Part shown: positions 1-59,292 of the stretch, piece by piece
Layout of the letters: every line of letters begins with the position of its first letter
Numbering within the stretch: the first letter of the stretch is position 1
Source: Nitrososphaeria archaeon
GTDB lineage: Archaea > Thermoproteota > Nitrososphaeria > Geothermarchaeales > JDFR-13
Direction: 5' to 3'
Length of the DNA stretch: 64,000 nucleotides
Assembly (NCBI GenBank): GCA_027078545.1
Contig: JALWXN010000004.1
Span: 142,737-206,736 of the forward strand
Notes under the pieces: generated by a model
What the model was told of the DNA's origin: nothing
The model's input: the letters and a program-made list of their open reading frames with translations, nothing else
The model's database searches: none
Position numbers and translations under genes: made by a program

Positions 1-23
1 GTCTAGATCCTAATAGTCTTGGT

Positions 24-365
24 ATGGGGATCTACGAGTCAGTAGAGAAGATCCTGAGATATAGGGTAGAGAGAACAGCTAAGAAGGGCATATTAAGTAG
101 GGGCAGGATAGGAAACTTCGTAAAAATTGCTATCTCAGGAATATTTGCACTTCTCCTAACCGGTATAATGAATATCAATCCTAGGAACTTCCCAAACACT
201 ACGCTATTCACCGTGGTTAATCTAGTCTACCTAGTGGCCATGTACATGATTTTAACGACAATCGAGAAGAACTCTAGGGATAGAACATTGTTCTATATTG
301 GCGTAGTGCTTGTAATGATGTTGATGATGTTCTCTTCATGGTTCATAACCTTCGCCATCAGGTAG
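24..365 (+). CDS. hypothetical small membrane protein (2-3 predicted TM helices)
   Basis: ORF track; hydrophobic segments; no recognisable family. Confidence 0.3.
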   Translation: MGIYESVEKILRYRVERTAKKGILSRGRIGNFVKIAISGIFALLLTGIMNINPRNFPNTTLFTVVNLVYLVAMYMILTTIEKNSRDRTLFYIGVVLVMMLMMFSSWFITFAIR

Positions 366-836
366 ATCTTCCCTCAATTTCATCCCTGCTGGGGTGGATA
401 GCTTCACATATATCTTGTCGAAGAAGTTGGACAATAGATCGATAAGGGAGGGATCCAGCCGTTCATAGAGCCAGAAAACAACTCCCTGGCTACTCCACAC
501 GTTATTCAGGAGAAGGAGGAGAATAAAGGGGCAGCTCCTACTAGTTAGAGAAAAAAGCTCGGAGCAGGGAATATTATAAATCAGCTTCAACCCACTCTCC
601 GACCAGTTAAACGAGTCGATTAGTACGCTATCAATTGAGAATGGTTTGAATATCCTTAGATTTGTTCTGGGATCTAGCATTGTGGATAGGTCTATAGCTG
701 TCTCAGGATTGATGATATTCAGTACATCCACGATATAGACATCGGGAATCCCCATGCCTACCTCTCTTATCAACCTAGCCAATGCATCCAACTCTCTACG
801 TGGGGGGAGTAGATCCCCATGGACTAGGATCCTCAA
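336..836 (-). CDS. hypothetical protein, likely translationally coupled to xpd (ATGA overlap)
   Basis: ORF immediately downstream of xpd on the same strand with a 4-nt overlap. Confidence 0.3.
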   Translation of the reverse strand: MRILVHGDLLPPRRELDALARLIREVGMGIPDVYIVDVLNIINPETAIDLSTMLDPRTNLRIFKPFSIDSVLIDSFNWSESGLKLIYNIPCSELFSLTSRSCPFILLLLLNNVWSSQGVVFWLYERLDPSLIDLLSNFFDKIYVKLSTPAGMKLREDLPDGEGYEP

Positions 837-2608: not shown

Positions 2609-2727
2609 CCCATATAGTTATAATTGTATATAGTTTACGAGGAGACGAAGAGTAAGGTGTAAATATTCGCTATCCATGGGAAAAGAGGATATCTAATACT
2701 GATGGGCAACCTATAGATTAACGGGAG

Positions 2728-4959
2728 ATGGCCTATTTCAACCATCCACTTCTAAAGAAGGACACGTTAGAATATCGTGTTTATCAGGACGAACTGGCTA
2801 AGAAGGCGGCGAAGAAAAACACTCTACTCGTCCTCCCAACGGGAACAGGTAAGACTGTAATAGCCCTACTAACTATACTTAGATGGTTGGATGAAAACCC
2901 TGATGGTAGGGCCTTCTTTCTAGCCCCTACAAGACCCCTTGTACATCAACACTATAAATTCTTTAGATCAGTCCTAGAGGGAGGGGTAACTATAGGTGTC
3001 TTGACGGGTGAACAGAGGCCTGAAAATAGGAGGATCCTATGGAATCAGAAAATAGTGTTTGCTACTCCCCAGATACTCTATAACGATCTAGTTAGGGGTA
3101 CAGTCTCAATAAGTAACAATGATATTCTAGTGTTCGACGAGGCTCACAGAGCAGTTGGCAACTATGCATACGTAAAGATAGTTACGTATCTCAGACTAAG
3201 ATCAATAGAGCCTAGGATACTAGCCATGACAGCATCGCCGGGCGATAAGACGAAGACCATGGAGATCATACGTAACCTAGGACTGGAGAACCTTGAGATC
3301 TATACCCATGACGATCCGCTGATCGAGCAGTACTTCCACGGATATAGCGTGAAACCAGTCTTCATAGAGATGGATCCTGTCCTTAGACACATAATCAACC
3401 TGGTGAAGACTGTTATGGAGAGATATGTCGACAGGGCCAACCTCATGCTCGAACCCTACGAGCTGAGGATCGACAAATCCAGAGTCTCATATAGCCAGAT
3501 AGAGGAGATAAGGACACAGCTAAACGAGAAGATAACACCATTTAACGCCGTAGAGGAGAAGAAGATCAAGATGATAAGGAAGATCCTCTATGAGATCATC
3601 CTCCTAGACAAATTCCTAACATACCTGGAGAGCTATACATACCAAACCGCACACAAATACATCTCTGAACTACTCGGATACTCGGGAAGCTCCAAGAAAG
3701 GCCTCAGCCTTAAAAATGAACGGGAGATCAGGGAAGCGTACTACCTCTTAGACTCACTTATCCGAAACGGCAGGATGCATCCAAAGACACAGAAACTGAT
3801 AAACGTGCTCTCAGAGGAGGAGTTTAGACGTGCACTTGTATTTACGACTCTAAAAGAGAACGCCTATGAGCTGAGCAGTATAATTGCAACTAAGCTCGGG
3901 ATCCCCTCATCCGTACTGGTAGGCAGGGGAAACAATGGGAGCAAGGGTATGAAGCAGAGTCTACAGATAAAGACCTTGGAAGACTTCAGCTCAGGAGCGA
4001 TAAGAGTCCTCGTAGCGACAAACATTGGGGAGGAGGGCCTAGACATTTCAGAGGTAGATCTGGTCATCTTCTACGACAACCCAGTAAGCGTCATCAGAAG
4101 GATACAGCGTATGGGTAGAACGGGACGTAAACAACATGGGAAAGTCATATTCCTAATACTCAGGGGGACCAGGGACGAGAAGAAGTACTATGCAGGGATA
4201 CATAGATATAGGAGACTAGTAAGAGAGTTGAAAGAGCTTAAGAAGGAGCTTGAACTGATGAGCACCTCATCAACACTAGACAACTTCATCTCAAGCGAAC
4301 AGAGAAGGGAGGAGTACGTCGTCATAGTAGATACTAGGGAGCAGGGAAGCATTGTAAACAAGCTAGAGGCCATGAGGATACCCGTGAGGATAGAGTCACT
4401 AGAAATAGGTGACTACATCATCGGCAGAACCATAATCGAGAGGAAGACTGTGAAGGACTTTATGAGATCCCTCTATGAGGGTAGGCTATTCACACAGCTT
4501 AAAGAACTATCCACGCTAAAGGACTATAACAAGATCCTGCTCCTAGAGGGAGATAAAAAGGAGCTCCTAATATCAATGGGAACAAATACAGCAATAGGCA
4601 CCATACTAACCATAGTCAACGACTACAAGATCCCTATCTACTACAGCGAGAATGAGGAGGAGACCGCCAACCTGCTAAAGGTGCTCTACAACAGAGCGGT
4701 TAGAAACAAGGAGAAGACGGAGCGCATAAGGATGGATAAGAAGCCTAAGCAGCTAGAGGAGATACAGCTATATGTACTGGCTGGGATACCCGGGATAGAC
4801 AACAAGATGGCCAGGAGACTACTGGAGAAGTTCGGATCTCTAAAAGCAATAGCTAATGCCTCTCCAAACGACCTTATGAAGGTCCACGGAATCGGACCCG
4901 AGCTGGCTATGAGGATATACCGGGTATTCAATCATCACTACCGTGAGAAGGCTTCCTAG
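2728..4959 (+). CDS. hef: Hef: DEAH helicase fused to XPF/Mus81-type nuclease and HhH2
   Basis: 'LVLPTGTGKT', 'FDEAHRA', nuclease motif 'GDYIIGRTIIERKTVKDF', C-terminal HhH 'GIPGIDNKMARRLLEKFGS'. Confidence 0.85.
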   Translation: MAYFNHPLLKKDTLEYRVYQDELAKKAAKKNTLLVLPTGTGKTVIALLTILRWLDENPDGRAFFLAPTRPLVHQHYKFFRSVLEGGVTIGVLTGEQRPENRRILWNQKIVFATPQILYNDLVRGTVSISNNDILVFDEAHRAVGNYAYVKIVTYLRLRSIEPRILAMTASPGDKTKTMEIIRNLGLENLEIYTHDDPLIEQYFHGYSVKPVFIEMDPVLRHIINLVKTVMERYVDRANLMLEPYELRIDKSRVSYSQIEEIRTQLNEKITPFNAVEEKKIKMIRKILYEIILLDKFLTYLESYTYQTAHKYISELLGYSGSSKKGLSLKNEREIREAYYLLDSLIRNGRMHPKTQKLINVLSEEEFRRALVFTTLKENAYELSSIIATKLGIPSSVLVGRGNNGSKGMKQSLQIKTLEDFSSGAIRVLVATNIGEEGLDISEVDLVIFYDNPVSVIRRIQRMGRTGRKQHGKVIFLILRGTRDEKKYYAGIHRYRRLVRELKELKKELELMSTSSTLDNFISSEQRREEYVVIVDTREQGSIVNKLEAMRIPVRIESLEIGDYIIGRTIIERKTVKDFMRSLYEGRLFTQLKELSTLKDYNKILLLEGDKKELLISMGTNTAIGTILTIVNDYKIPIYYSENEEETANLLKVLYNRAVRNKEKTERIRMDKKPKQLEEIQLYVLAGIPGIDNKMARRLLEKFGSLKAIANASPNDLMKVHGIGPELAMRIYRVFNHHYREKAS

Positions 4960-5685: not shown

Positions 5686-5807
5686 GGAGGGGTTCCCCTA
5701 GCCTGGCCAACCCCCCACGGGGGGCTATCGGGGGCGGGCTCAAGGTTGAAAGAGGAGAAACCCGCTGGCGTAGGCCTTCGTGGGTTCAAATCCCACCCCC
5801 TCCACCA
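5686..5807 (+). tRNA. tRNA-Leu(CAA) with two introns (one in the D-loop, one after position 37), CCA encoded
   Basis: Acceptor GGAGGGG/CCCCTCC, A73, long variable arm, T-arm GTGGGTTCAAATCCCAC; ~34 extra nt compared with the intron-free tRNA-Leu copy at 49107. Confidence 0.7.
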
Positions 5808-36992: not shown

Positions 36993-37056
36993 GACCACTC
37001 AATAGATAATCATCTTTAAGTGGGGAATACCCATCAAATATAATATCTATAGAAGT

Positions 37057-37154
37057 GGGCCCGTGGCCTAGCCTGGTCAGAGCCCCTGCCGGGCGGCTAG
37101 GGCGCCCGGCTGATAACCGGGAGGTCGCCGGTTCAAATCCGGCCGGGCCCACCA
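37057..37154 (+). tRNA. tRNA-Ile(GAU) with ~20-nt non-canonical intron between D-stem and anticodon stem (about 25/26)
   Basis: GGGCCCG acceptor, D-arm GCCT-AGCCTGGTCA-GAGC, insert CCTGCCGGGCGGCTAGGGCG, anticodon arm CCCGG-CTGATAA-CCGGG, T-arm, CCA. Confidence 0.7.
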
Positions 37155-37354
37155 ATTAATTCCTTTTTGGTCGCGCTCCTTTTCTTCCCATTCCTTCCCG
37201 AGAAGTTAATCAATATTCGGAAAAATGTAAAGAAAAAGAGGACGTGATGGGTTACAAGTATTGCATAAGTCATGCCTCCCGGGGGGCGCTGAGTTAAGTA
37301 AAAATAGACTGCAATCAGTTTATAACGATTGTGACTTAACTTACATTTTTAAGC

Positions 37355-37948
37355 TTGAAAGGGAGAATGAGATTTGTAAGTGAAATGAGTCTCGGAAGAG
37401 AGACGCAACTTATGACCTATAAAGATAAGGGTAAAACCATTAGGCCTATAAGCGTAACAATGATTAATGACAGTTTTATAGTTGCAGTCTATAAGGGTAA
37501 GAAAAGCGCAGCAGATATAGTAGTAAGATATAGACAAAGATTAAAAAACGGTGGTTGGTCTAGGATTCGAACTCCAAAACATATACACTGGACTGTGGAC
37601 ATTTTATTGAAGATGCTAAAATGTGACAAACTTACTAAAAAATTTCTAGACGAGCTAATAAAAATCTGGGAGAAAGATGTTCATCCACTATCAGAAGAAG
37701 ATGTAAAGAAATTAGACCTTAATCAATTGGTAATCAGTAAGAAAGATATATTGGAAAGGTTTAAAGAACTAAATAGATATGGAGAATATAGTGTTGATTT
37801 CCTCTTATTAATAGCAGAACTTCTCATGTTACAAGAAAAAACAAACTATCCAAGTGGAAAACTATTCCTCATATTGCTAAAAAAACTAAAGGAAGGTGAA
37901 GATCTGTTCAGTATTGTTCAAACAGCTTCACTTCGAAGACTTCAGTGA
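37355..37948 (+). CDS. hypothetical protein in the AT-rich islet
   Basis: ORF in low-GC DNA; no motif. Confidence 0.3.
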   Translation: MKGRMRFVSEMSLGRETQLMTYKDKGKTIRPISVTMINDSFIVAVYKGKKSAADIVVRYRQRLKNGGWSRIRTPKHIHWTVDILLKMLKCDKLTKKFLDELIKIWEKDVHPLSEEDVKKLDLNQLVISKKDILERFKELNRYGEYSVDFLLLIAELLMLQEKTNYPSGKLFLILLKKLKEGEDLFSIVQTASLRRLQ

Positions 37949-38098
37949 GGATAATTGTTGCTTCCTCTACTAGTTAAAAAGGCCAAGCCTGAATAGTTAT
38001 GTTAAAGGCCCTCGTTACAAAAACTGAGTTTATGGTTTCGACTACATTTACTTAGTCTATGAATGGCTCGATAAGGCAGCCTAGTTGTCTATGTTTAA

Positions 38099-39784
38099 TT
38101 ATTTAATTATATTTGCTAGTATGCCCGCTAACAGACTCGTTCTTTTCTCTATTTCTTCTCCGCTCCATTTCTTATATTTATCAACTAAGTATTTGGTGTT
38201 TAATGCTAAACCCGATTTTTTATAAGTCTCTTCCTTTTCATTATAGTTTTTAGAACCTAACTTGATGTTTTCATCCTCCTCTAAGAGAGTTAAATTTCCT
38301 ATTTTATAAACTAATTCAGGATTATCTAGTTTATCACGACGACTAATTGGATAAATATGCTCTAGTGTCAGGTCTTTTGAGGGGCGTTTCGTGTTCTCAG
38401 AGCTCTCAATTTCAAACAGCAAAGCTTTAGCTAATCTTTCATGTTTTCTTTCCTTAAATAAGAATTTAAGTAAACTTTGCTTAAACTCGTTATCCTCTGG
38501 AAATAGGTTACGCAGTTCTTGGTAATATTTTTCAGTGTTATTATTCTCAATAAGCTCTATCAATCGTCGTATTTTCTTTTCAAATTCACTTGGTGATTTA
38601 GAACATATTGTTCGTCTTATAAGTGTATAATATAAAGGTTTTAGTTTCTTCTCTATCTCTTTGTCGTTTATATTTCCTTTAGGATCTGCATATTTTTCAA
38701 GAAGAGCAAACATAATGGGAATGTGTTGTCTTATACCGATGGAGAAAAGAGTAGTTAAATAATCCACTATTGTCTCTTTCTTCCAATATATTTTCGATGG
38801 TGCTGAGATGTTCCTGTAATATATATTAAGAAATCGTTCTAGTTCGTCGAAAAATTGTCTGACATCATCAAGATTATTAATCCTCTTTTTTATTTCTTTA
38901 AAAATATCCTTTTCTCTTACAAAGTCATATTTGTATATAAGATAATATCTTATAACATATTTCAGTTCTCTACTTTCATATTCTGAGAGGAAGCTATTCC
39001 ACTTTTCATCAAAACGTATAACCTGTGTTTGATCCTCAGAATTACTTAGAATACCTAGAAGATAGTTTTTTATAAGGTCTAGTGGAGCTAAGGTAAGCCC
39101 TCTAGCGTTTAAAGTTTCGAAAATTAGAAAAGCGTTATGTTCAGAGTCCACTTCTACTACTACAGTAATTATATTCTCTTTTATCCCGATGTCAACAATC
39201 TTACTTAACCATTCTTCAATTTTCTGATTATTTTTCTTTATTTCTCTATCTATAATTTTATAGGACTCTACATAAGTTGTTAACATATTATTCCATGATG
39301 TATATTTTTTATCGTTTAGAAGTTTTCGCAGTTCCCTTTCCTTTTTCTGTAAAGAACCTTCTTTGATTGTTATAATTTTTTCGTAGAATTGTCTATCAAT
39401 CTTATTAGGAATGACACTTAGTTTCTCATTGCCTACAACATCATGATGACGCATAAGAAACAGTGAATGGATCCTATTGCTAAATTTTGTATAATTCATA
39501 TTAATAAGGTAGTCTCTTAGAGCAGCCAAGAAGAGACAGGTAGTTATTAGTCGTTGTTGACCATCGATTACAACATATTTATTCCTACCCTTTGATGTTA
39601 GAACCATCGGACCAATAAAATATTCCTCTCTAGACCCTTGCTCTATGATATCTAAAATAAATTCCTTTGCTTCCTCTTTCCAAGAATAGCTTCTCTGATT
39701 AATAGGAACTTCAAAATCTCTTGTCTGCAACAACTGTCCTAATGTTTCACTCCTAACATCTGTTACAACTTTTTTGTTACTCAT
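38099..39784 (-). CDS. GmrSD-like DUF262 (ParB/Srx-like NTPase) + DUF1524 (His-Me finger nuclease) defense protein
   Basis: 'KYVVIDGQQRLITT' DGQQR motif at the N-terminus; C-terminal 'TLEHIYPIS...NPELVYKIGNLTLLEE' H..N..H-like motif; low-GC context. Confidence 0.75.
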   Translation of the reverse strand: MSNKKVVTDVRSETLGQLLQTRDFEVPINQRSYSWKEEAKEFILDIIEQGSREEYFIGPMVLTSKGRNKYVVIDGQQRLITTCLFLAALRDYLINMNYTKFSNRIHSLFLMRHHDVVGNEKLSVIPNKIDRQFYEKIITIKEGSLQKKERELRKLLNDKKYTSWNNMLTTYVESYKIIDREIKKNNQKIEEWLSKIVDIGIKENIITVVVEVDSEHNAFLIFETLNARGLTLAPLDLIKNYLLGILSNSEDQTQVIRFDEKWNSFLSEYESRELKYVIRYYLIYKYDFVREKDIFKEIKKRINNLDDVRQFFDELERFLNIYYRNISAPSKIYWKKETIVDYLTTLFSIGIRQHIPIMFALLEKYADPKGNINDKEIEKKLKPLYYTLIRRTICSKSPSEFEKKIRRLIELIENNNTEKYYQELRNLFPEDNEFKQSLLKFLFKERKHERLAKALLFEIESSENTKRPSKDLTLEHIYPISRRDKLDNPELVYKIGNLTLLEEDENIKLGSKNYNEKEETYKKSGLALNTKYLVDKYKKWSGEEIEKRTSLLAGILANIIK

Positions 39785-40291
39785 TAGAATAACCTCCTAA
39801 CGACTCTGAATATGTTACCTACTAGCTTGTAATATCTGTTAAATATTTGCTTCAATTACATATATAAGTCGATTCCTTACACAAACACTGGGAAGAAAGT
39901 TCAAAGACTATATTAATTCCTTTATGTAAATAATTATTTCGAACAAGTTCCTCATTTAAGAACATGGGTGGGAAACCTATTATAAACCTGAGTTTGCAAC
40001 ACTTTGTCTTATAGGTGTTCAGCTACGAGAAATATAGTATATTATATGCATATGAACATCTCCATTGACAATAGTGATAATAATGATGTAAAAGTTTGAA
40101 TGAATCTTCAAGAACATCCAGGACTTTCAGATAAATTGTGAAGGGGGAAAGGGTAGTCTGATATATATTCTACTTTCAATTAGATACTTCCAACCAAGAC
40201 TTATCTATAACAAGTTAAAAAAATCAATGAAGAGGCCATAGAAAACCGGACAAACTTTATAAAACCGGAGTCTGAAAATATAGAGTTGACT

Positions 40292-40389
40292 GCCCCGGTG
40301 GTGTAGCCCGGCCAGCATACCGGCCTGTCGACAAGTATCCACGGGCGGTCAGCCGGTGGACCCGGGTTCAAATCCCGGCCGGGGCGCCA
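40292..40389 (+). tRNA. tRNA-Asp(GUC) with ~20-nt anticodon-loop intron
   Basis: GCCCCGG/CCGGGGC acceptor, G73, anticodon stem CCGGC/GCCGG enclosing CTGTCG+intron+A, CCA encoded. Confidence 0.75.
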
Positions 40390-41860: not shown

Positions 41861-43845
41861 CAGCCCTCCTCTTCTTTTCTGGCCTGTGACGAGCCGCTAC
41901 CCTTCAACCTCTCCCGGAATTTTTCAAGACCTTCTATATTGTTGAGCTCTTCCATCCACTCTCTTGGATCCTTCAGATGGTACTTACCACCCCTTTCACT
42001 GAGGAAAACACTTGATAGGCCTCCCAATACAACGGCGAGGTCATCCCACCTATTATAGAAATACTCCTGTAAAAGAGGCATTATCCTATACACCCATACC
42101 TCTTTAAACGTCTCAAATGCATCATTTTCGTTTTTGGATCCAGCTAAGACCTCGAGGAAATAGCTATGCCCAATCCTATGATCCCTATCCAAGTAACTCT
42201 CAATTCTCTCGTTCAAAACCTCCAGGATCTCCTTCAGATGCTTTGCCAGCTCCTCCTTCTCCTCGCCAATCTTTCTAGCCACTTCTACCAGGGTATCGGG
42301 ATCGGGGGGTATCTCGAGGAATGCAAACCGTCTCCTCAATGCATAGTCGACAAGGGCGATACTCTTATCCGCAGTATTCATGGTACCGATAATATAGAGG
42401 TTTGGAGGAACCGCGAATAGCTCCTTTGAATAGGGCAGGGTTACCAACACGTAATTCTCTCCAAACAGCCTCTTATCCATCTCCAGGCAAGTAATCAACT
42501 CACCAAGTATCCTAGCCAAGTCACCCCTGTTTATCTCATCAATAACCAGATAGAACTTGCGAACAGACTCACCTGATTCGTCATATTTTTTCTTATACTC
42601 ATTAAGATCATCTGGGTTTTTAAGAATCTCACTAACGCCTTTCTTATAGCCTAGATCTTCAAGTAGGGCTTCTAAGGCCCTACGAGCCAGATCCTTAAAC
42701 ACACCATCCTCAACCTTATACATTATTCTACCCTTTTCATCGGTCACGGCTCTATAGCCCTCAACAAACTCCTCATAACTATATGATGGATGGAAAGTGA
42801 CAACCTCATAGAGATCTTTATTGCCACAAGTCACCCCATCCACGTATTTCAGAGCAAGAAAAGTCTTACCCGTACCAGGAGGACCATACAAAACAACCTG
42901 TCCATACATCTTTAGAAGATTATCAATATCTGAATATCTTTCCTCCTCTCTTAAGTTATCCTTCTCTTGATCATTATGGTTGCCATTGTGGTTACCCTCT
43001 TCCTTCGAGTGTTGGCCATTATTGTGTGTATAGAGATATATGAAACCAGAAAACCAAACAGTTTTGTATTTCACCCTACAAATCATATTTTTATTCAGTA
43101 TTTCGTTGAAATTCAAATAATGAATTTCCATAAGATATTTTCTCACATAAATTTCGGGTTCATTTTCAATTTCTTTCACCTTTGGAAGATGGTTACATGT
43201 TTTTGAAAAGGCTATGGCATTACTATCATATGGACAAAATATCTTCGGATTAATCAAAAATAATCCTTGAGTTAATTTTGGTACTCTTATCCCAGGTTCT
43301 GATCGTATTTCCTTAAATCTTTTAGAAAAGTAGCTTATGTCATTAACAAGATCCTCTATGGTATCATAATTACTTATTCTTTCCCCAAATTCCCATAACT
43401 TGGGGACGATGTCCTCGATGTTATTGCTATCGGGATCAAAGAAGAATCTTCGCTTTGGGGAGGGTTGTAATGGCTGCCCGGTTCCAACTGGTAAATCATA
43501 TTTTTTGCTAGTTCTTTTAATGCGTATCTCTTCTGGACGGATAGGTTTTTTACTTCTTCCTGCAGTATGGATAGAATAAATTATCGTAAATGGATCAATT
43601 AAATATTTTCCTTCTTTACTCTTAAACTTCTCCTTTTCCATTTTAATGCTTACTATTGATGTTAGTTCATCCACTAGTTCTTCATAAAACAATGCTTCTT
43701 CCTCGGGATCGGTCTTGACCTTCCTCCATTCGTCGAACAAATCTTTCCAGAACTCTAAGTATTTCTCGACCCAGTTATCATTATAACCTTTCATTAATGC
43801 CCTAATTTTTTGGTCGTGTTTCTTAATGCATTCCTCTAATGGCAT
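41860..43845 (-). CDS. mcrB: McrB-like AAA+ GTPase (type IV restriction) with novel ~300-aa N-terminal domain
   Basis: 'LYGPPGTGKTF', 'FHPSYSYEEFVEGYR', 'VIDEINRGD', 'IIGTMNTADKS...ALRRRFAF'. Confidence 0.85.
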   Translation of the reverse strand: MPLEECIKKHDQKIRALMKGYNDNWVEKYLEFWKDLFDEWRKVKTDPEEEALFYEELVDELTSIVSIKMEKEKFKSKEGKYLIDPFTIIYSIHTAGRSKKPIRPEEIRIKRTSKKYDLPVGTGQPLQPSPKRRFFFDPDSNNIEDIVPKLWEFGERISNYDTIEDLVNDISYFSKRFKEIRSEPGIRVPKLTQGLFLINPKIFCPYDSNAIAFSKTCNHLPKVKEIENEPEIYVRKYLMEIHYLNFNEILNKNMICRVKYKTVWFSGFIYLYTHNNGQHSKEEGNHNGNHNDQEKDNLREEERYSDIDNLLKMYGQVVLYGPPGTGKTFLALKYVDGVTCGNKDLYEVVTFHPSYSYEEFVEGYRAVTDEKGRIMYKVEDGVFKDLARRALEALLEDLGYKKGVSEILKNPDDLNEYKKKYDESGESVRKFYLVIDEINRGDLARILGELITCLEMDKRLFGENYVLVTLPYSKELFAVPPNLYIIGTMNTADKSIALVDYALRRRFAFLEIPPDPDTLVEVARKIGEEKEELAKHLKEILEVLNERIESYLDRDHRIGHSYFLEVLAGSKNENDAFETFKEVWVYRIMPLLQEYFYNRWDDLAVVLGGLSSVFLSERGGKYHLKDPREWMEELNNIEGLEKFRERLKGSGSSQARKEEEG

Positions 43846-44386
43846 CTTAAAATAAATTATAACACCCTATTTCCTTAAATAGATGTTTTAGGGTCTCTAA
43901 CAACTAGCTGATTATACAATAGTTTTCAGTTTTCACCGCTATTCTTAAGAAATGTTGCATGGGAGAAAAAATTCGCTATTAGTTCTTATGTTGAGTTGTT
44001 TAGTTGCTTTCTATAGACAGGATGTGGTTCAAGTGAGTATATGAGATCATCTTAATTTATATTTTATTGAATTAGTATGTTTAACTGATAACATTATATG
44101 TTTCATTTACTCAAATAGTTCTCGGAAGCTATTCATGGAGAATATCCATTATATCATCGTTTCTGTCATATATAGTCACTCGTTATATAGCGTGAGGTTG
44201 TCTTTATAACAACAGGTTAGAGATAACGGTCCTCCTGTTTTTGAATGTCTAGGAACTAGCTCTCAGCTTTGTAACACGTGTACCATACACAGATCTGGAG
44301 GGTGCATAGCATTAAGCAATGCATGTGGAGATTTCTAAGTCCGATGTAAGTTTTAAAAGTTTCTTGTGGGGTAGAATATTGGTGGG

Positions 44387-44543
44387 CCCCCCGTAGCTCA
44401 GTGGCTAGAGCGGCCGGCTGTAGCTGTCTCGGCCCACGGATGACTGGGCGTATGCCTTGGGTTGAGTCCGTGGCGGCCGGCGGAGACAGGGCGATGTCCC
44501 CTCCAGCGGCAGGTCGTGGGTTCAAATCCCACCGGGGGGACCA
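44387..44543 (+). tRNA. tRNA-Tyr(GUA) with C1-G72 and two introns (~52 nt after position 37 and ~29 nt in the variable/T-arm region)
   Basis: CCCCCCG/CGGGGGG acceptor with A73, D-arm GCTC-AGTGGCTA-GAGC, anticodon stem GCCGG...CCGGC enclosing CTGTAG, T-arm GTGGGTTCAAATCCCAC, CCA. Confidence 0.55.
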
Positions 44544-49106: not shown

Positions 49107-49195
49107 GGAGGGGTTCCCCTAGCCTGGCCAACGGGGCGCGGTTCAGGCCCGCGTGGCGTAGGCCTTCGTGGGTTCAAATCCCACCCCCTCCACCA
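49107..49195 (+). tRNA. tRNA-Leu(CAG), intron-free
   Basis: Same acceptor and D-arm as the 5686 copy; anticodon arm CGCGG-TTCAGGC-CCGCG; long variable arm; CCA. Confidence 0.8.
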
Positions 49196-51263: not shown

Positions 51264-51303
51264 CCGGAGGAGGGACACGCACAGACAACCCACCAACCCC
51301 CCG
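51264..51303 (+). other. 16S pre-rRNA processing stem, 5' strand
   Basis: CCGGAGGAGGGACAC and CAACCCACCAACCCCCC are exact reverse complements of 52866-52880 and 52841-52857. Confidence 0.8.
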
Positions 51304-51325: not shown

Positions 51326-52824
<1,499 letters not shown>

Positions 52825-52840
52825 AGGTGTTCTGGGTGGT

Positions 52841-52880
52841 GGGGGGTTGGTGGGTTGGTGTTGGGTGTCCCTCCTCCGGT
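52841..52880 (+). other. 16S pre-rRNA processing stem, 3' strand
   Basis: GGGGGGTTGGTGGGTTG ... GTGTCCCTCCTCCGG pairs with the leader. Confidence 0.8.
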
Positions 52881-53300
52881 TTTGTTATGTTGTTTGTTGT
52901 GCTATTGTTTTGATTGTTGTTTCTAGGTGTTTGTTGAGTTGTTGTGTTGTTTTTGGTGGGTTGGTTGTTTCTATTCTGTTTTTTCGGGTTTGTTTGTAGT
53001 TGTGGGGTTTTAGTGTTTTTTTGAGTTTTTGTAGGGTTTTTTGTTTGTTGGTTTCGATTCTTATTATGTATCCTTGTGGTTCGTCGTAGATCATTAGGGT
53101 TATGTGTGTGTCTGGCTGGGGTTTGTAGTGTGCCTCTATTTGTGGCCATCCCCAGTTCTGTGTTGATTCTAGGATTGGTGGTAGGTTGTTTTTGAGTGAT
53201 TCTTCGAGTATTTTTCGGGCTATGTCTAGGTATGTCCTCATCTTCTCCCTCTTTGTTTGTTGGCGTGGGCGGGTGTGTCTTGTTATTCGTTCTTGTGTTA
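52881..53300. repeat. extreme strand-asymmetric low-complexity tract (plus strand G+T rich, almost no A, few C; degenerate TTG/GTTT-like repeats)
   Basis: Direct reading, e.g. 'gttttgttatgttgtttgttgtgctattgttttgattgttgtttctaggtgtttgttgagttgttgtgttgttttt'. Confidence 0.8.
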
Positions 53301-53820
53301 CTTGTTTGAGTGTGTCTATTCCTTGTCTGACTAGGTTTTTTATGTGGGTTGTGTCGAGGGTTTCTAGTCTGTATCTGAGGATGGTGAATGCTACTCCGTC
53401 TGGGTGGATCTGTTCCTCTATGTCTAGTCCTTGTTGCCGTAGCTTCTCCGCGTTTTTTCTGCGTATGTGGTGGTATTTGAAGGCTTCTGGGTATTTCTGC
53501 ATTAGTTGTTGTAGGAATTCTCCTTTCCATGCTCCTTCCATTGGTTTTACTTCTTCCCATTCCTGGTCTAGGTCGAAGAGGATTGTTTCGAAGATCTTCT
53601 CTTTTGGTGTCTCGAGGGCTAGGATCATGTTGTCCATGTCTATCCAGATGGCTTCTATGGAGTAGTCCTCGATCAGGCTTACGGTTACTGATCGGTGGTC
53701 TATGGCTGTGGCTATCTCTGGGGGTATGGTCTCGTCCTCTAGTACTAGCTCGGTTATGACCCTCATCAGGTCGTATGCCTTTGTTAGGCTCCTCATAACT
53801 CCCCCCTCTTCTCCTCCCAA
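52885..53820 (-). CDS. hypothetical protein, paralog of 54557..55486; the C-terminal third is a Q/T/K/N/P low-complexity tail encoded by the T-depleted strand (possibly decaying)
   Basis: Shared 'YPEAF(K/R)...LR(Y/L)RL' segment with the 309-aa ORF; the tail lies in the tract where stop codons cannot occur. Confidence 0.4.
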   Translation of the reverse strand: MGGEEGGVMRSLTKAYDLMRVITELVLEDETIPPEIATAIDHRSVTVSLIEDYSIEAIWIDMDNMILALETPKEKIFETILFDLDQEWEEVKPMEGAWKGEFLQQLMQKYPEAFKYHHIRRKNAEKLRQQGLDIEEQIHPDGVAFTILRYRLETLDTTHIKNLVRQGIDTLKQVTQERITRHTRPRQQTKREKMRTYLDIARKILEESLKNNLPPILESTQNWGWPQIEAHYKPQPDTHITLMIYDEPQGYIIRIETNKQKTLQKLKKTLKPHNYKQTRKNRIETTNPPKTTQQLNKHLETTIKTIAQQTT

Positions 53821-53929: not shown

Positions 53930-54595
53930 ATGAGGCTTGCTTTACTGTCTCTCGCTTTGGGAGCCATATTTCTATATGTTGTCCTTAGTTATCCTCTGGT
54001 CTATCCTCTAGCTGAAAAAGATGGTAGAAGGGTATGTCTCGACTTAGAGGCGCTGGAGATAGATATGACGATTATCGTTGTTGGTGAGACTAGTGCCTAT
54101 GTAGATGGGGTTATAGAGGTGTATATAGATAGGGGTATGGGGGTTGTACGTCTAGAGCCTGATGATCTAGATGATTTTGACTGGATGGAGGTTGATGGGC
54201 TCGGCATAGTCGTGTTCTATGGCGATTGGCTGGCCAGCCATGTGTCAGACCCGAGGATAGCAGGCTTTATTGCTGAAATCGAGTTTGATAGGATAGGTCT
54301 TGTAGCGATCGATGGCAATACATCTAGCCTCTTTACCCTTCTGGATATGGTGGGTATCTATAAACTTGTACAAGAGGGTGGTGTAAAGTGGAACCCTGCA
54401 TATTCAAATCCTCATGTGGTGGGGTATATGCATCTTGAGGGGGTGATGCCTAATGGAAGCATATACTACTTCCCCTCGATCTTAATGTCGAATAGTAGGC
54501 TTGAGATAGATGCGGCTATCGCGATTGCCAATTGGATGGCTGGTGAAGACTACGAGTCAGAGCTGGACTGTGAATGGGTCCAGCTCCCGGGGTAG
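53930..54595 (+). CDS. secreted/membrane-anchored hypothetical protein
   Basis: N-terminal hydrophobic 'LALLSLALGAIFLYVVLSY'. Confidence 0.4.
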   Translation: MRLALLSLALGAIFLYVVLSYPLVYPLAEKDGRRVCLDLEALEIDMTIIVVGETSAYVDGVIEVYIDRGMGVVRLEPDDLDDFDWMEVDGLGIVVFYGDWLASHVSDPRIAGFIAEIEFDRIGLVAIDGNTSSLFTLLDMVGIYKLVQEGGVKWNPAYSNPHVVGYMHLEGVMPNGSIYYFPSILMSNSRLEIDAAIAIANWMAGEDYESELDCEWVQLPG

Positions 54596-55486
54596 TGTAT
54601 CCCTAATCCACTGCCTCAGTCTTAGTGTTCCTATGAATACTTCTCTGTATAGTAGCTTCTCTGTATGGAGTGTCTCTTTATACCTGCCCGTCTCTAGTAG
54701 TTCCCGGCGTTTCTCGGGTGTCGCGGGCCTCATCACTACATGGTATTTATGGCTGTCCATCTCTATCTCTAGGGCTTTGACCAGCCTGCTCTTCTCCGTT
54801 CTGATATGGATCGCCGTGGGGGTCAGGTTGGATAGGTATACTGCCTGGGGTGTCTCGCCGATCCTGAGTAGGCTCTTCAGAGCAGTCTTCGCGGTCTCGT
54901 ATAGCTCGTCTGTCGTCCTGGTCTCCCCCCTCCTATAGTAGGGATCGGCGGCGTCTCGATCCCTACCCATCTCCCTACACCATCTCTGGAATGCCTCGGT
55001 GGCCTCCCTTGTCCTTGCGAGTATCTCGCCCGGCCCCCACCTGGCTATACGGAGCTTTAGCCTCGTATATGTATAGCTGTTCCGATCCACAATCGTCTCC
55101 AGCCTAATATTCATCTCCCTCGAGACTTTCTGAGCCGCCTCACGGGACATATCTAGATGTCTGAAGGCCTCGGGATACCTCTCCCTAAGGCTCTCTAGGG
55201 TGCTGGGGCTACTCCAGTCATCCACGTCCGAGAACTCGTCCTCCGCCCCGGGGTATAGCTGGGCTATCATCTCGGCTAGCTCATAGCCACCGCTCCTCGC
55301 CTCTAGCAGCCTGCCCTGCCGCCTAAGCTCCAGCTCCTCCAGCCTATCATCATCTAGGGTGATGAGGACCCTCCCCTCGTTTATGGATATGGAATAGTAT
55401 GGGGCGAATATCGTCTCCCCGATTAGGTGCTTGGCGGCCAGATACGACATATCCAGGTTCTCCCGGATCTTCCCATGTCTAGTCAT
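54557..55486 (-). CDS. hypothetical protein, last gene of the TGT-like operon
   Basis: Start overlaps the stop of the upstream 408-aa gene by 8 nt. Confidence 0.45.
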   Translation of the reverse strand: MTRHGKIRENLDMSYLAAKHLIGETIFAPYYSISINEGRVLITLDDDRLEELELRRQGRLLEARSGGYELAEMIAQLYPGAEDEFSDVDDWSSPSTLESLRERYPEAFRHLDMSREAAQKVSREMNIRLETIVDRNSYTYTRLKLRIARWGPGEILARTREATEAFQRWCREMGRDRDAADPYYRRGETRTTDELYETAKTALKSLLRIGETPQAVYLSNLTPTAIHIRTEKSRLVKALEIEMDSHKYHVVMRPATPEKRRELLETGRYKETLHTEKLLYREVFIGTLRLRQWIRDTLPRELDPFTVQL

Positions 55487-56705
55487 CTCGATCCCTCCAA
55501 AGGATTATGTATCCCTTATTACTCCTATGGTCGTAGCCAATTATTACGACAATTCTGGATAGTTTTTCCACCCGCCGATTCAGTAGGTCCTTTCCAACTA
55601 CTCGTGTCAGCAGATCATAGTATTCACTGACTTGTTTAACGGCATTCTTTAAGGATCTCCTCCCTTCCCTTTCTTCAAACCTATACTTTATCTCTGCTAC
55701 ATACATCTCATTCTCGATAAATCCTATTATATCGGGTCTGCGATTAGCGAGGATCTCCCTTAATACATCTTTATAGGGATCGTGTTTAGTGGGCTCAACA
55801 TACACTTCACGTATTCCGATGCTGTACAGGAAATTGATGGCTAAACTCTTCCCCAGGACGTCTCTTTTAGTCATGAACCCATCATTCCTTCCTTCTAGAC
55901 GGTCTTTATGACTCTCCCTCATTATGGTGTCGGCTAGACTTCTAAGATTTTCATCCCTTATCCTGTATGTATACCTCTCTACTTCCAAGCCCGCTATTCT
56001 GGTTTTCTCTTTTTCGAGTATCTCCAACGAATCCGAAATAGGTTTAAAAAGCTTCTTCTTAACATTCTTCTCGACGTCAAGAGACGTCTTCTTAAGCTTC
56101 TTTCCATGTCTGTAGTATAGATCGATGCTATATAGGGAGCTCTCTAACTTCTCGACTCTGTAAACTGCTGGTCTAGATCCTCGCCTAGGTTCTACTATCC
56201 ATAAATTAGCTTTTCCAAGTTTCATCTGAAACTTGAGTGTTACTACTTGACCTGCACGTGTTTTGCTGGGATACTCAGCTAGTAGTGCCACTCCACATCC
56301 TCTCTCCTTTTCATAGCTCCATCTCTCAGTGGATAGATATACGTCTCCCATCTTGACTACTATCTGGTTTATGTTGATGCTTAGAACTATTGGTAAGGTT
56401 TTCCTTATCGCTTCGTTAAAGTCTTTTATAAAATTGTAGACGTTGAAGGGTTTGATATTTACCCAATATTCCCCAGGCTTAAGGCCGCTAAACATTATTT
56501 CCTTCTCTTTCTCGCCCCCAAGGTGTCTCCAGTAGTAGATATACTGTTCTCCATCGTGGATCTCTAATTTGAAGACATCTGTACCCAGCATGTCGCGGGC
56601 ATATTCAAATGTCAGACCGTGAATAACCAGTGTAGGGTATTTACCTCTCCTAATGACCGCGTTTGCAAGTATCTCAATGGACTCAGGCCTTATAGTTTCT
56701 CCCAC
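55479..56705 (-). CDS. hypothetical protein with C-terminal PD-(D/E)xK nuclease-like motif
   Basis: 'EVYVEPTKHD...RRPDIIGFIENEMYVAEIKYR' (D325...E338.K340). Confidence 0.5.
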   Translation of the reverse strand: MGETIRPESIEILANAVIRRGKYPTLVIHGLTFEYARDMLGTDVFKLEIHDGEQYIYYWRHLGGEKEKEIMFSGLKPGEYWVNIKPFNVYNFIKDFNEAIRKTLPIVLSININQIVVKMGDVYLSTERWSYEKERGCGVALLAEYPSKTRAGQVVTLKFQMKLGKANLWIVEPRRGSRPAVYRVEKLESSLYSIDLYYRHGKKLKKTSLDVEKNVKKKLFKPISDSLEILEKEKTRIAGLEVERYTYRIRDENLRSLADTIMRESHKDRLEGRNDGFMTKRDVLGKSLAINFLYSIGIREVYVEPTKHDPYKDVLREILANRRPDIIGFIENEMYVAEIKYRFEEREGRRSLKNAVKQVSEYYDLLTRVVGKDLLNRRVEKLSRIVVIIGYDHRSNKGYIILWRDRDD

Positions 56706-56708
56706 GGT

Positions 56709-58301
56709 TTACACACCGTGTTCCTTAGATTTTCCAAATAGTTGGAATGGATTTACACCCTCTAGGATCTCCACTTCTCCGCTATGGGTGATGTATACTC
56801 CTCCGGGTCTTAGTAGTCTGGCTGGTTCTCTGTAGGATCCCCACCTCCCAGGCGTGGCTATCCTCCTCTCCCTGTCTATGTAGGGCTCTTCGATATAGTC
56901 TGTTACTAGCCATCCATCCTCACCTATCCCCCTGCCTAGATCCTCGATGGCCGCCTCCCTGGGTTTTCCACTGGGGCCTAGAAGCCTAATAGTCACGTCG
57001 AAGCCTCCTCCCCAGGTCTCCTTCCTTATGGTCATGGATCCCCATCTAGCTGTTAGGACTAGTCTGGTGACTAGTTCTCTAACCTGGGCTTCACCCTGGT
57101 CAGGACTCTCCTCTACTAGGTCTATACCCCTGTATAGGAGGCTGTCGAGTAGGCGGCCTATGTTGGCCCTGCCTGGCGGCATGTCCCATACCAGGATTAT
57201 CCTGGTGTCCCGATGTGTATCTATCCATGCTCTAAACTCTTCCAGCACTTGTATGGATATCCGGCTGGTGTCGAATACCCGGCCCGTCAGGACTAGGTAT
57301 CTAGGCCTATGCTCACCAGCCATCTTGAGGCCCAGTCTCCATAGGCTGTGCCTCCCACCTATCATGAGGTCGTTTAGTATCAAGAGGTCGTCATACGTCT
57401 CTAGGATGAGGTCGTATCTCTCCACCCTGTAGTCCCTACTCTCCTCCCCAGCGTAGTGCCTAATCAGTTCACGGCTTATCATGAGGTTGTGGAGGGATAT
57501 GTACCGCCTCTCCCTCCTGAGCCTAGGCCCCGTGGCCAGGCACACATCGCAGTTACAGTGGTAGAACCCCCTCCTAATGTCTATGGCCTCGCCCAGCCCT
57601 CCATACACCGTCATCCTAGTGGCGTCGATAAACCATGAGTATCCAGCCAGCCTTATCCTCTCCGGATCCAGAGCCATCAGGTCGGGGATGTGCCTAGGCC
57701 CGGCCCCACCAAGTACCAACACCTCCTTGAATGGGTATTCGAGGATGAGCTCTAGGAGGTGCTTCAGATATTCATGGGTGTATCTGATGCCTGCTAGCCC
57801 AGCCCTCCTGAGGTAGGGCTCTATATACTGGTTTGTGGATAGGTAGGGAGACGCATGTATAGCCACGGTCTCGAAGCCCAGCTCAGCCAGCCTCTCACAT
57901 GCATATCTCTTATGCTCGGGGTAAGCCCCCTTTACAAGGGGTATTATGTTGAACCTCCCCCTAAGCCTCTCCACCACCTCTAGAGACTTCAATGTGTTTC
58001 GCCAGCTGGCCTCCTCATCGTCTAGATATGTGGGGGTGTCCCAGGCTATTATATAGTCGAAGCCATGCTCCGAGGCGAATCCTAGGAAGTCTTGTAGCGT
58101 CTCCTCCCTCTCCAGATACTCGTCAGGCATGATGCTTGAGAGTATCAGCTTTATACCGGGGTTGGCCTCCCTAATAAGACGTATATCCTCCGGGCTTATC
58201 ACCACCTCGTAGTATGGTAGGACTGCATATCCAAAGTGGTGGGCCGCCTCGGCGAAGATCCTCAACGCGTCTCTACCGACTATGGGGATGAAGTGGTCCA
58301 T
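56709..58301 (-). CDS. divergent tRNA-guanine-transglycosylase-family protein (DpdA/ArcTGT-like) with extra ~230-aa C-terminal domain
   Basis: Zn subdomain 'YHCNCDVC...(x19)...ISLHNLM', 'VLVLGGAGPRHIPDL' resembling the TGT 'LFGAGHP' region. Confidence 0.6.
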   Translation of the reverse strand: MDHFIPIVGRDALRIFAEAAHHFGYAVLPYYEVVISPEDIRLIREANPGIKLILSSIMPDEYLEREETLQDFLGFASEHGFDYIIAWDTPTYLDDEEASWRNTLKSLEVVERLRGRFNIIPLVKGAYPEHKRYACERLAELGFETVAIHASPYLSTNQYIEPYLRRAGLAGIRYTHEYLKHLLELILEYPFKEVLVLGGAGPRHIPDLMALDPERIRLAGYSWFIDATRMTVYGGLGEAIDIRRGFYHCNCDVCLATGPRLRRERRYISLHNLMISRELIRHYAGEESRDYRVERYDLILETYDDLLILNDLMIGGRHSLWRLGLKMAGEHRPRYLVLTGRVFDTSRISIQVLEEFRAWIDTHRDTRIILVWDMPPGRANIGRLLDSLLYRGIDLVEESPDQGEAQVRELVTRLVLTARWGSMTIRKETWGGGFDVTIRLLGPSGKPREAAIEDLGRGIGEDGWLVTDYIEEPYIDRERRIATPGRWGSYREPARLLRPGGVYITHSGEVEILEGVNPFQLFGKSKEHGV

Positions 58302-58453: not shown

Positions 58454-58705
58454 GTGCTGGTAACGGTGTCTATAAAGGTTAGGAGGGAGGTCGTGGATCT
58501 GGCTGATAAGATGGTCCGCCTCGGCCTGGCTAGGAGTAGGTCCCACGCCTTCAACAGGATGATTGAGAAGGGTCTGGATAAGATTCGGGAGGAGGTGGGC
58601 TTCTGGGAGGATACGCTCATTAGGCTTGAGGATCTCTCCAGATCTGGTTATAGGATCAGGCATGGAGGCCTCTCGAGGCTTTTGGTGGAGGGTAGGAGCA
58701 GGTGA
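58454..58705 (+). CDS. vapB: VapB-like ribbon-helix-helix antitoxin
   Basis: 'VSIKVRREVVDLADKMVRLGLARSRSHAFNRMIEKG'; 4-nt overlap with vapC. Confidence 0.6.
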   Translation: MLVTVSIKVRREVVDLADKMVRLGLARSRSHAFNRMIEKGLDKIREEVGFWEDTLIRLEDLSRSGYRIRHGGLSRLLVEGRSR

Positions 58706-59103
58706 TATGTCTAGACACAGATATAATTATCTCCTACCTCGACGAGCTGGATCCTAACCATCAAACAGCTGTGGAGCTCCTATCAGGGATACGTGGCAGG
58801 AGAGTGGTGAGCTGGTTGACCATAGTCGAGCTATCCAGCGTCTATTCACGGGCGGGTATGGAGTCTCCAGCAGCGCTGGCCCTATACTCCATCGAGAAGG
58901 TAGGAGCCGAGCTGGTCGACCTAGACATGGAGACGGTCATTAGGGAGGCCCTCAAACTATCCAGCCGGCTACGCCTTAAGACACTCGACCTGCTACACAT
59001 ATCTGCCTCCCTACAGGCCGGGTGTAGGTTCTTCATGACGCTGGACAAGGAGATTAGGAAGGCGTCTGATGAGATTGGGAAGATGGGGATTAGGATAATA
59101 TGA
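58702..59103 (+). CDS. vapC: VapC PIN-domain toxin
   Basis: 'CLDTDIII', 'TLDLLHISAS', C-terminal acidic residue. Confidence 0.8.
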   Translation: MICLDTDIIISYLDELDPNHQTAVELLSGIRGRRVVSWLTIVELSSVYSRAGMESPAALALYSIEKVGAELVDLDMETVIREALKLSSRLRLKTLDLLHISASLQAGCRFFMTLDKEIRKASDEIGKMGIRII

Positions 59104-59215: not shown

Positions 59216-59292
59216 GGGCCCGTAGCTCAGCCTGGCGGAGCACCGGGCTCATAACCCGGGGGTCGTGGGTTCAAATCCCACCGGGCCCACCA
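59216..59292 (+). tRNA. tRNA with CAU anticodon; the acceptor stem is identical to tRNA-Ile(GAU), so probably tRNA-Ile2 (agmatidine) rather than tRNA-Met
   Basis: GGGCCCG/CGGGCCC acceptor, anticodon arm CCGGG-CTCATAA-CCCGG, CCA encoded, no intron. Confidence 0.85.

Follow-up and report, generated by a model that had tools for sequence, protein, structure and literature searches.

Proteins with the fold of tRNA-guanine transglycosylase (TGT) were long viewed as tRNA enzymes, a view that now has to accommodate DpdA, which inserts 7-deazaguanines into DNA, and Cap10, which handles a conjugate of nucleobase and protein. The three active-site Asp residues of TGT and DpdA are reported as invariant, and the substitutions D95A and D256A abolish the activity of DpdA (PMC10164549). 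A Dpd system joins DpdA to DpdB (a ParB-like ATPase), DpdC (DUF328), DpdD-K and usually genes for preQ0 synthesis. Cap10 (PDB 9NTN) is a TGT fold remodelled to bind the Gly2 N-terminus of its CD-NTase conjugated to 7-amido-7-deazaguanine; it reads the base with D73, S74, D122 and K154, and its nucleophile is D248 (bioRxiv 10.1101/2025.04.06.647259). It belongs to the type IV cyclic-oligonucleotide-based antiphage signalling system (CBASS), which consists of a CD-NTase with an M(G/S)G(G/S)GG start, the QueC-like Cap9, the zinc-less Cap10, often OGG, and a cyclic-nucleotide effector. Archaeal defence loci with TGT homologues have already been proposed in BRC systems, some classes of which are archaeal (PMC12839542), and viruses of archaea are known to carry DpdA4 (PMC10516641). 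I compare with these systems an operon of three genes, here called A, B and C, in a stretch of 64,000 nt (the window) of contig JALWXN010000004.1 from a Nitrososphaeria archaeon of hot springs. The original prediction, based on the letters of the window, took the operon for a candidate system of DNA modification and restriction in which a DpdA-like protein would insert preQ0-derived bases.

Gene A (56709..58301) encodes 530 aa comprising a TGT-like TIM barrel with its zinc subdomain and a degenerate metallophosphoesterase domain. Gene B (55479..56705, 408 aa, GTG start) has a Met-Gly tail, a beta-rich N-terminal region and a C-terminal PD-(D/E)xK nuclease domain, and gene C (54557..55486, 309 aa) is a fast-evolving third component. 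All three lie on the minus strand; in the analysis of the open reading frames (ORFs) A and B are separated by 3 nt and B overlaps C by 8 nt, exactly the packing that had been described. Since conserved homologues exist for all three, they are real genes rather than chance ORFs. Together they form a conserved accessory gene set of Thermoproteati archaea, mostly uncultivated thermophiles, and, more than a standard system of DNA modification, the locus resembles a module of defence type that has not been described.

The reading I favour, with a probability of roughly 0.42, builds on the folds, the motifs conserved and lost, the gene linkage and the instability of the locus, all established here. 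It holds that the trio is a nuclease-based, restriction-like accessory defence module. A would be its recognition and scaffold subunit, retaining in the TGT barrel the zinc subdomain that serves to bind nucleic acids, together with a pocket for a guanine-type base (D88, K124, S55/S56 and the clade-invariant D60 and Y92). Having no Asp nucleophile of the kind that TGT and DpdA use for base exchange, it would act as a reader and not a modifier, and its fused Mre11-like domain would be catalytically dead in this lineage. B would be the effector, a PD-(D/E)xK nuclease acting on DNA, probably coupled to A by its Gly2 N-terminal tail, and C, with its paralogue D, would be a variable subunit with an accessory or specificity function.

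Searched by word index, 5.8 billion protein clusters contained only 14 homologues of A, none of them annotated. The closest genome match, at 95% identity, is a metagenome-assembled genome (MAG) of Candidatus Geothermarchaeota, and the others come from MAGs of Nitrososphaeria or 'Thermoprotei' and from Ca. Scotarchaeum otlingeri. When 1.84 billion representatives were searched exhaustively with a profile, the relatives rose to 128. Forty of these, at E<=1e-30, have the same two-domain plan, either full-length or as fragments, while the weaker relatives are mostly stand-alone proteins of 250-390 aa that match the N-terminal domain only. I will refer to the fetched loci of these relatives as L001-L036 and to proteins of the wider clade by P-numbers; linkage was judged from scans of the fetched loci with hidden Markov models (HMMs).

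The N-terminal domain of A (57447..58301, minus strand, aa 1-285) is predicted to be a (beta/alpha)8 barrel with a C-terminal zinc subdomain of the form CxCxxC...H, and the AlphaFold model (mean predicted local distance difference test, pLDDT, 84.9; predicted template modelling score 0.81) places A firmly in the TGT superfamily. ArcTGT (PDB 1IQ8) is its best match by both structure and profile, and a profile of 46 sequences of the clade aligns with ArcTGT over residues 26-322 (E=1.4e-9). The zinc motif noted in the original prediction, C249-x-C251-xx-C254 ... H271-N272 (57489..57557, minus strand), aligns with the zinc site of ArcTGT and is invariant across 15 homologues. The LGGAGP segment, which had been likened to the GAGHP region of TGT, holds up equally well: its GGAGP occupies residues 197-201, and G198 falls on the glycine of LFGAGHP in alignments with ArcTGT and E. 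coli TGT. In the same alignments K124 falls on a conserved Gln of TGT. The signature of the clade is LSSIMPD...WDxPTY...KG; only D60, D88, Y92 and G125 are invariant in its members (46-77 compared), S55 and K124 being conserved at about 91%.

Scans of Pfam, NCBIfam and PHROGs gave nothing significant for A, and Pfam gave no match to Pfam TGT, PUA or DUF5591 at E<=1. Searches of the PDB with single sequences gave spurious matches to antibody Fab fragments for A and no match for the distant homologue P0042. By hhalign, the family of A matches E. coli TGT weakly, co-linear around D88, and does not match the DpdA of phage 9g.

The resemblance to ArcTGT, including the zinc motif and an Asp (D88) in the place of its D130, raises the possibility that A is a divergent ArcTGT or ArcS paralogue acting on tRNA, which the original prediction had itself named as the alternative. 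I consider this very improbable. Unlike ArcTGT, A lacks the C2, C3 and PUA domains, carries a different fused C-terminal domain, related to Mre11, and belongs to a small, separate and rare clade; of the catalytic Asp residues of ArcTGT, D249 aligns with Ala and D95, at moderate confidence, with Ser. Unlike ArcS, which is defined by DUF5591 and PUA, it has neither domain. A is also linked to a PD-(D/E)xK protein, and the decay of its gene in close relatives is unlike a housekeeping tRNA enzyme. The judgement that A is no orthologue of either enzyme is thus upheld. No canonical arcTGT lies within the 64 kb of the window.

The fate of the three active-site Asp residues is central to what A might do. 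The nucleophile stands at the end of beta8 (Z. mobilis D280, ArcTGT D249, E. coli D264, DpdA D256), the general acid/base after beta3 (Z. mobilis D102, ArcTGT D95, DpdA D95) and the base-recognition residue after beta4 (Z. mobilis D156, ArcTGT D130, DpdA D130). The last of these is kept: D88 of A, in a W-D-x-P-T-Y motif, falls on D130 of ArcTGT and D143 of E. coli and is 99-100% conserved. The nucleophile is not, for its position aligns with Ala219 at maximal posterior probability in two independent profile alignments, and the column contains Ala, Ser, Thr or Cys across 77 members of the clade. The general acid/base Asp, D95 of ArcTGT, aligns with Ser55, at a HMMER posterior probability that is only moderate, and the clade-invariant D60, five residues further on, may be its displaced equivalent. 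D226 and D212 were considered as displaced nucleophiles and ruled out, as neither is conserved in the wider clade, D226 being invariant in the close family only.

It is on this evidence that the DpdA-like model has to be weighed, according to which A inserts host-made bases of the preQ0 type into the cell's own DNA and B restricts DNA that lacks them. The zinc site and the base-recognition Asp are conserved, as they should be, and A, like DpdA (PDB 7UI4), is linked in a conserved operon to a restriction-type gene, here that of a nuclease; the conserved H149 of A would also lie near the position of His181 of DpdA. But with its nucleophile Asp replaced throughout the clade, A fails a defining catalytic feature of a DpdA-type inserter, the equivalent of the essential D256 being absent; the general acid/base Asp is not found at its aligned position either. 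Nor do the surroundings fit: some 20 neighbourhoods of related loci contain no DpdB, DpdC or DpdD-K and no gene of the Que pathway or of preQ0 synthesis. PADLOC has a DpdA model separate from its 'TGT' model, and it misses A, although it is matched by E. coli TGT; the 9g DpdA matches nothing. I therefore regard the model as unlikely. Of the system originally proposed, the divergent TGT relative, the nuclease and their linkage stand, while DpdA-like insertion of preQ0-type bases is not supported in the form proposed, given Ala219 and the lack of Dpd and Que genes.

The C-terminal part of A, about 230 aa, had been called an unrelated domain. It is instead a degenerate metallophosphoesterase fold of the Mre11/calcineurin-like type (56757..57434, minus strand, aa ~290-515), recognised by Foldseek through matches to Mre11, SapH, archaeal calcineurin-like phosphoesterases and phosphoesterases of the PF1218608 type. 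Active members of this superfamily have the metal-binding motifs DxH, GDxxD, GNH(D/E), H and GHxH. In A the DxH has become DLM, the GD has become GR and the GHxH has become TDYI, and DxH, GDxxD and GHxH are replaced in A and in all 12 aligned members of its Thermoproteati subfamily. The domain is therefore predicted to be inactive, and in this it differs from nucleases of the Mre11/SbcD type, whose fold it shares. By contrast, the distant full-length homologues P0035, P0038, P0042, P0043 and P0053 match Pfam Metallophos and keep DxH, GDxxD, HG and GHxH. Since they retain the motifs that the lineage of the window lost, the ancestor would have combined a TGT-like domain with an active Mre11-like phosphoesterase. 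A stand-alone copy of the phosphoesterase-like domain (212 aa) occurs in L017 (6752-7438), a few kb upstream of the trio. Distant homologues also carry a Cys-rich N-terminal extension of about 100-140 aa that is absent from A of the window (noted at aa 20-60 in P0042, 10-35 in P0090 and 15-45 in P0035); two of them contain CxxxCxxC, a possible site for a metal or an Fe-S cluster.

The partner of A has the features of a nuclease. A motif D325 ... E338-I-K340 resembling that of restriction endonucleases had been seen near the end of B, and it proves to be conserved. The domain (55482..55952, minus strand, aa ~252-408) shows the alpha-beta-beta-beta-alpha-beta core and the catalytic D ... (D/E)xK that define PD-(D/E)xK enzymes, the motif P324-D325 ... 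E338-I-K340 being at 55686-55733. The P-D...E-x-K is kept in every full-length homologue, and homologues of B match the Pfam families AHJR-like (1.9e-6), Hjc, NERD and PDDEXK_9. The earlier nuclease call is therefore supported, and B is judged to carry a genuine PD-(D/E)xK nuclease domain with an intact catalytic motif. It is akin to nucleases such as Hjc, the AHJR-like proteins, YraN and Cas4, a kind that includes the defence effectors HamA and Shedu SduA, and differs from them in having a beta-rich N-terminal region of about 250 aa and a conserved Gly2 tail. The N-terminal region is strongly conserved and has no convincing fold match; Pfam, NCBIfam and PHROGs give nothing significant for B. 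A protein of 437 aa found in L004 (1662-2975) and L017 (831-2144) consists of two tandem copies of this region, without the nuclease.

The co-conservation of the three genes was checked in related genomes, and the trio recurs in about 12 independent archaeal loci. The order A, B, C is found in the window and in L001-3, L005 (as A2-B2-D), L007, L014/L030, L017/18, L023, L024, L025/28, L027 and L032; L014/L030 has two convergent sets of the trio, the second ordered B-C-A. A is followed by B at contig ends in L004, L012, L026 and L029. In the distant L016, where the phosphoesterase domain looks active, A is followed by a PD...ExK protein of 203 aa and then by a C-like protein. Short members of the clade have other neighbours: that of L035 lies beside a protein with a LAGLIDADG domain, and that of L019 is the divergent neighbour of a 684-aa prokaryotic Argonaute with a Piwi domain (1-2052, minus strand, Pfam E=3e-12) together with a winged helix-turn-helix protein (DUF7347, 2075-2809, minus strand). 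The pairing of a TGT-like pocket with a nuclease is a recurring theme.

The locus is in flux even between close relatives. L006, whose 16S rRNA is 97% identical and whose site and flanks are the same as in the window, has a frameshifted B and a deleted B/C junction and lacks D. L005 has lost B by a precise deletion, but there a second pair, A2-B2, precedes the orthologue of D. The loss of B with A intact in these two loci is what restriction-modification logic tolerates and so speaks for the DpdA-like model; L032 goes the other way: a position of A that is Leu in L033 and L034 is a nonsense codon there, and B and C are intact. The disruption of A while B is intact is a weak argument against A as a protective modifier. 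L001-3 carry, between A and B, a DUF3368/UPF0175 toxin-antitoxin pair along with one more gene. The insert (5899-8154 in L001, also in L002 and L003) lies on the opposite strand, its additional gene encodes 364 aa, and a 61-aa duplicate of the N-terminus of B is found just upstream of B. In the closest genome, the one at 95% identity, a contig of 120 kb stops inside A at residue 458 (L010, WAKB01000010.1, 10001-11374), as might happen if the assembly broke at a locus that varies or is repeated.

Toxin-antitoxin genes occur near several of the loci: a VapB/VapC(PIN) pair at 58454-59103 adjoins the operon in the window, and PIN and MazE genes lie near L021. A scan of IMG/VR found no viral relative of A. 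The flux, the toxin-antitoxin neighbours and the lack of IMG/VR relatives fit an accessory, conflict-type locus and do not fit a housekeeping tRNA enzyme. The original prediction had placed the operon in an island of atypical composition next to the 16S gene and a VapBC module. The neighbours are as described, the 16S rRNA gene lying at 51327-52825 on the plus strand, and the neighbourhood looks like a variable island of defence type. Its composition, however, is only mildly atypical, with a GC fraction of 0.44-0.50 at 53-57 kb compared to 0.53-0.55 in the flanks.

The same surroundings might be read without defence. Descended from a TGT-like protein fused to an active Mre11-like domain, the module could be a factor of DNA repair or processing, or could serve the maintenance of a mobile element. 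The active-looking Mre11-type domain of the distant homologues would fit this, and tRNA genes (tRNA-Met at 59216-59292), rRNA genes and toxin-antitoxin modules, all found nearby, are common in integrated elements. Such a role is nonetheless quite unlikely, considering the patchy and rare distribution (14 close homologues in the cluster search), the decay and variation in copy number among close relatives, and the lack of any viral contig with a relative. No integrase and no flanking direct repeats were found at the boundaries of the island, the only strong inverted repeat there being the processing stem of the 16S gene.

What couples A to B in the favoured module may be the first residues of B. 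The tail, (M)GETIRPES (56679..56705, minus strand), is predicted to be flexible, since in the AlphaFold2 model of B, built with database homologues (pLDDT 81.5), the pLDDT of residues 1-5 is below 50. Gly2 is conserved in the B homologues of first sets: though only 26-47% identical, they all start M-G-[EQ] (MGETIRP, MGQTKK, MGQYK, MGQFR, MGEKLK). Similar starts appear on genes that are not homologous to B and lie directly downstream of other members of the clade, namely MGQYKT in L021, MGGGLK in L035 and, via a TTG codon, GGGYR in L019. Against the pattern stand MDSF in L016, MSKS in L036, and MSVF and MKQY in the copies of B of second sets, and Gly is not rare at position 2 of proteins in general. 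Gly2 is the site of 7-deazaguanine conjugation in CdnD (bioRxiv 10.1101/2025.04.06.647259) and the proposed site of modification in QatB (PMC13376578). The regularity is a lead rather than a finding, because a gene of the QueC kind is absent from every locus.

The lead points to Cap10, as does the only library model that A matches, the PADLOC model 'TGT' (PDLC00912, E=4e-12, aa 50-165). It also matches eight of ten members of the wider clade tested, and it is the sole PADLOC hit among A, B, C, D and the neighbouring gene E. From its name and the literature the model would be that of Cap10 of type IV CBASS (the output of the tool says just 'TGT'), and by sequence model the closest family of A would then be Cap10 and not DpdA. 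The two proteins would share a pair of Asp and Lys that reads the base (D122/K154 in Cap10, D88/K124 in A, if the positions are equivalent), a defence context and a partner with a conserved Gly2 N-terminus, this last a resemblance only. They differ in that A still has a zinc subdomain, which is missing from Cap10, has Ser55 and Ala219 where Cap10 has the essential D73 and the nucleophile D248, and is fused to a metallophosphoesterase domain. Of the components of type IV CBASS only the TGT-like one is matched, CD-NTase, Cap9/QueC and OGG being found in none of the loci.

One can imagine from this that the Gly2 tail of B enters the TGT-like pocket of A, in the manner of Cap10, and that A thereby licenses, sequesters or completes the nuclease. 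In one version the tail bears a nucleobase of the 7-deazaguanine type, as with CdnD and Cap10, and A reads the tail and so controls the nuclease. In another the alpha-amine of the tail is the missing nucleophile, supplied in trans, and the two proteins together make a glycosylase/lyase directed at guanine-type or 7-deazaguanine bases in invading DNA. Extended to the whole clade, the pocket would serve the Gly2 N-terminus of whatever product is encoded directly downstream: B here, a LAGLIDADG protein or an unrelated protein elsewhere. The 'TGT' match, K124 at the Gln position of TGT, the Met-Gly-like starts and the flexible tail speak for the idea. The absence of a QueC-like or Cap9-like ligase from all of about 20 loci, the retained zinc subdomain, the lack of conserved equivalents of D73 and D248, and the exceptions to Met-Gly speak against it, and I hold it to be unlikely.

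Several points weigh against the favoured module, in which A is a reader and B a nuclease effector. PADLOC recognises no complete defence system at the locus, and the role in defence is drawn from context. A hydrolytic or other non-canonical catalytic role of the invariant D60 is possible, the alignment of S55 and D60 being of moderate confidence. The disruption of A at some loci may be an artefact of assembly, or a second copy may compensate for it; L032 shares a contig with L028. Finally, the fold of C escaped recognition, a profile search of the PDB and Pfam scans of nine members having given noise only.

The searchable full-text literature yielded no description of the trio, of the fusion of TGT and metallophosphoesterase domains or of the clade without a nucleophile. 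The original claim of novelty, that such a combination was undescribed in archaea, accordingly stands for the trio itself and falls for the general idea, since TGT homologues had already been proposed for archaeal defence loci, as cited above. If the favoured reading is true, the module would be a third way of reusing the TGT fold, one that has lost its nucleophile, is joined to an inactive Mre11-like domain and works with a nuclease. As a defence system, it would enlarge the short list of known archaeal immune systems by an uncharacterised family. Some archaeal viruses carry 7-deazaguanine bases, and D60, D88, K124 and the Gly2 of the partner would in that case offer a handle on whether archaea sense or use 7-deazaguanines in conflicts with viruses. 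Were the tail in fact to occupy the pocket, the chemistry of nucleobase-protein conjugates would extend from bacterial CBASS and Qat to archaeal nuclease systems without a dedicated QueC-like ligase. Even if the locus is merely a decaying accessory one, the corrected domain annotations keep it from being classified as a Dpd system of archaea.

C has a single strong motif, W-S-x-P-...-Y-P-E-A-F, around aa 93-108, no match in Pfam, PDB, PHROG or NCBIfam, and relatives that were detected at trio loci only. D (52885..53820, minus strand, 311 aa, true start probably M9), an ORF omitted from the original prediction, is part of the same story: it is a paralogue of C (E=9.9e-94 with the C-family HMM, found also by tblastn and blastp). 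Its orthologue in L005, 95% identical, is the third gene of the A2-B2-D set, and its partners A2 and B2 are absent from the window. The C-terminal 120 aa or so of D form a low-complexity tail rich in K, T, Q and N (52885-53560 is the C-terminal half), the AT skew in that kilobase being -0.52, and an ORF of 247 aa that overlies D in another frame (52817-53560) is likely to be an artefact of the composition. Between C and D lies E (53930..54595, plus strand, 221 aa), a predicted membrane-anchored protein. It is 46-48% identical to the proteins at the same position in L005 and L006 and is absent at other trio loci; with its position conserved in the closest relatives alone, it probably lies outside the core set.

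The 16S rRNA gene is bracketed by an inverted repeat of 39 nt, 87% complementary (51264-51302 and 52841-52879), like a processing stem, and D, on the strand opposite to the 16S gene, lies only 6 nt past it. Because the 11 kb of the window that are left contain no 23S gene, and because of the position of D, the 16S gene appears to be an unlinked, stand-alone rRNA unit; the arrangement in L006 is the same.

Further away in the window, an exact direct repeat of 42 bp (5766-5807 and 49154-49195, copies 43 kb apart) corresponds to the 3' half of tRNA-Leu(CAG). The full tRNA gene occupies 49107-49195, and the copy at 5766 is without the 5' half. The two may be attachment (att) sites of a large integrated element, or the shorter one a tRNA remnant; a partial copy upstream of the intact gene is an unusual orientation for an att pair. 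Sharp patches of low GC at 37000-40000 and 43000-44000 (0.31-0.38, against about 0.50 around them) may be marks of foreign insertions, and they adjoin tRNA genes at 37057-37151, 40292-40386 and 44387-44540. At 95-154 nt these exceed standard tRNA length and may therefore contain introns. Those at 40292-40386 and 44387-44540 are recognised by Rfam and not by ARAGORN, whereas the tRNA-Leu at 49107 is recognised by ARAGORN and not by Rfam.

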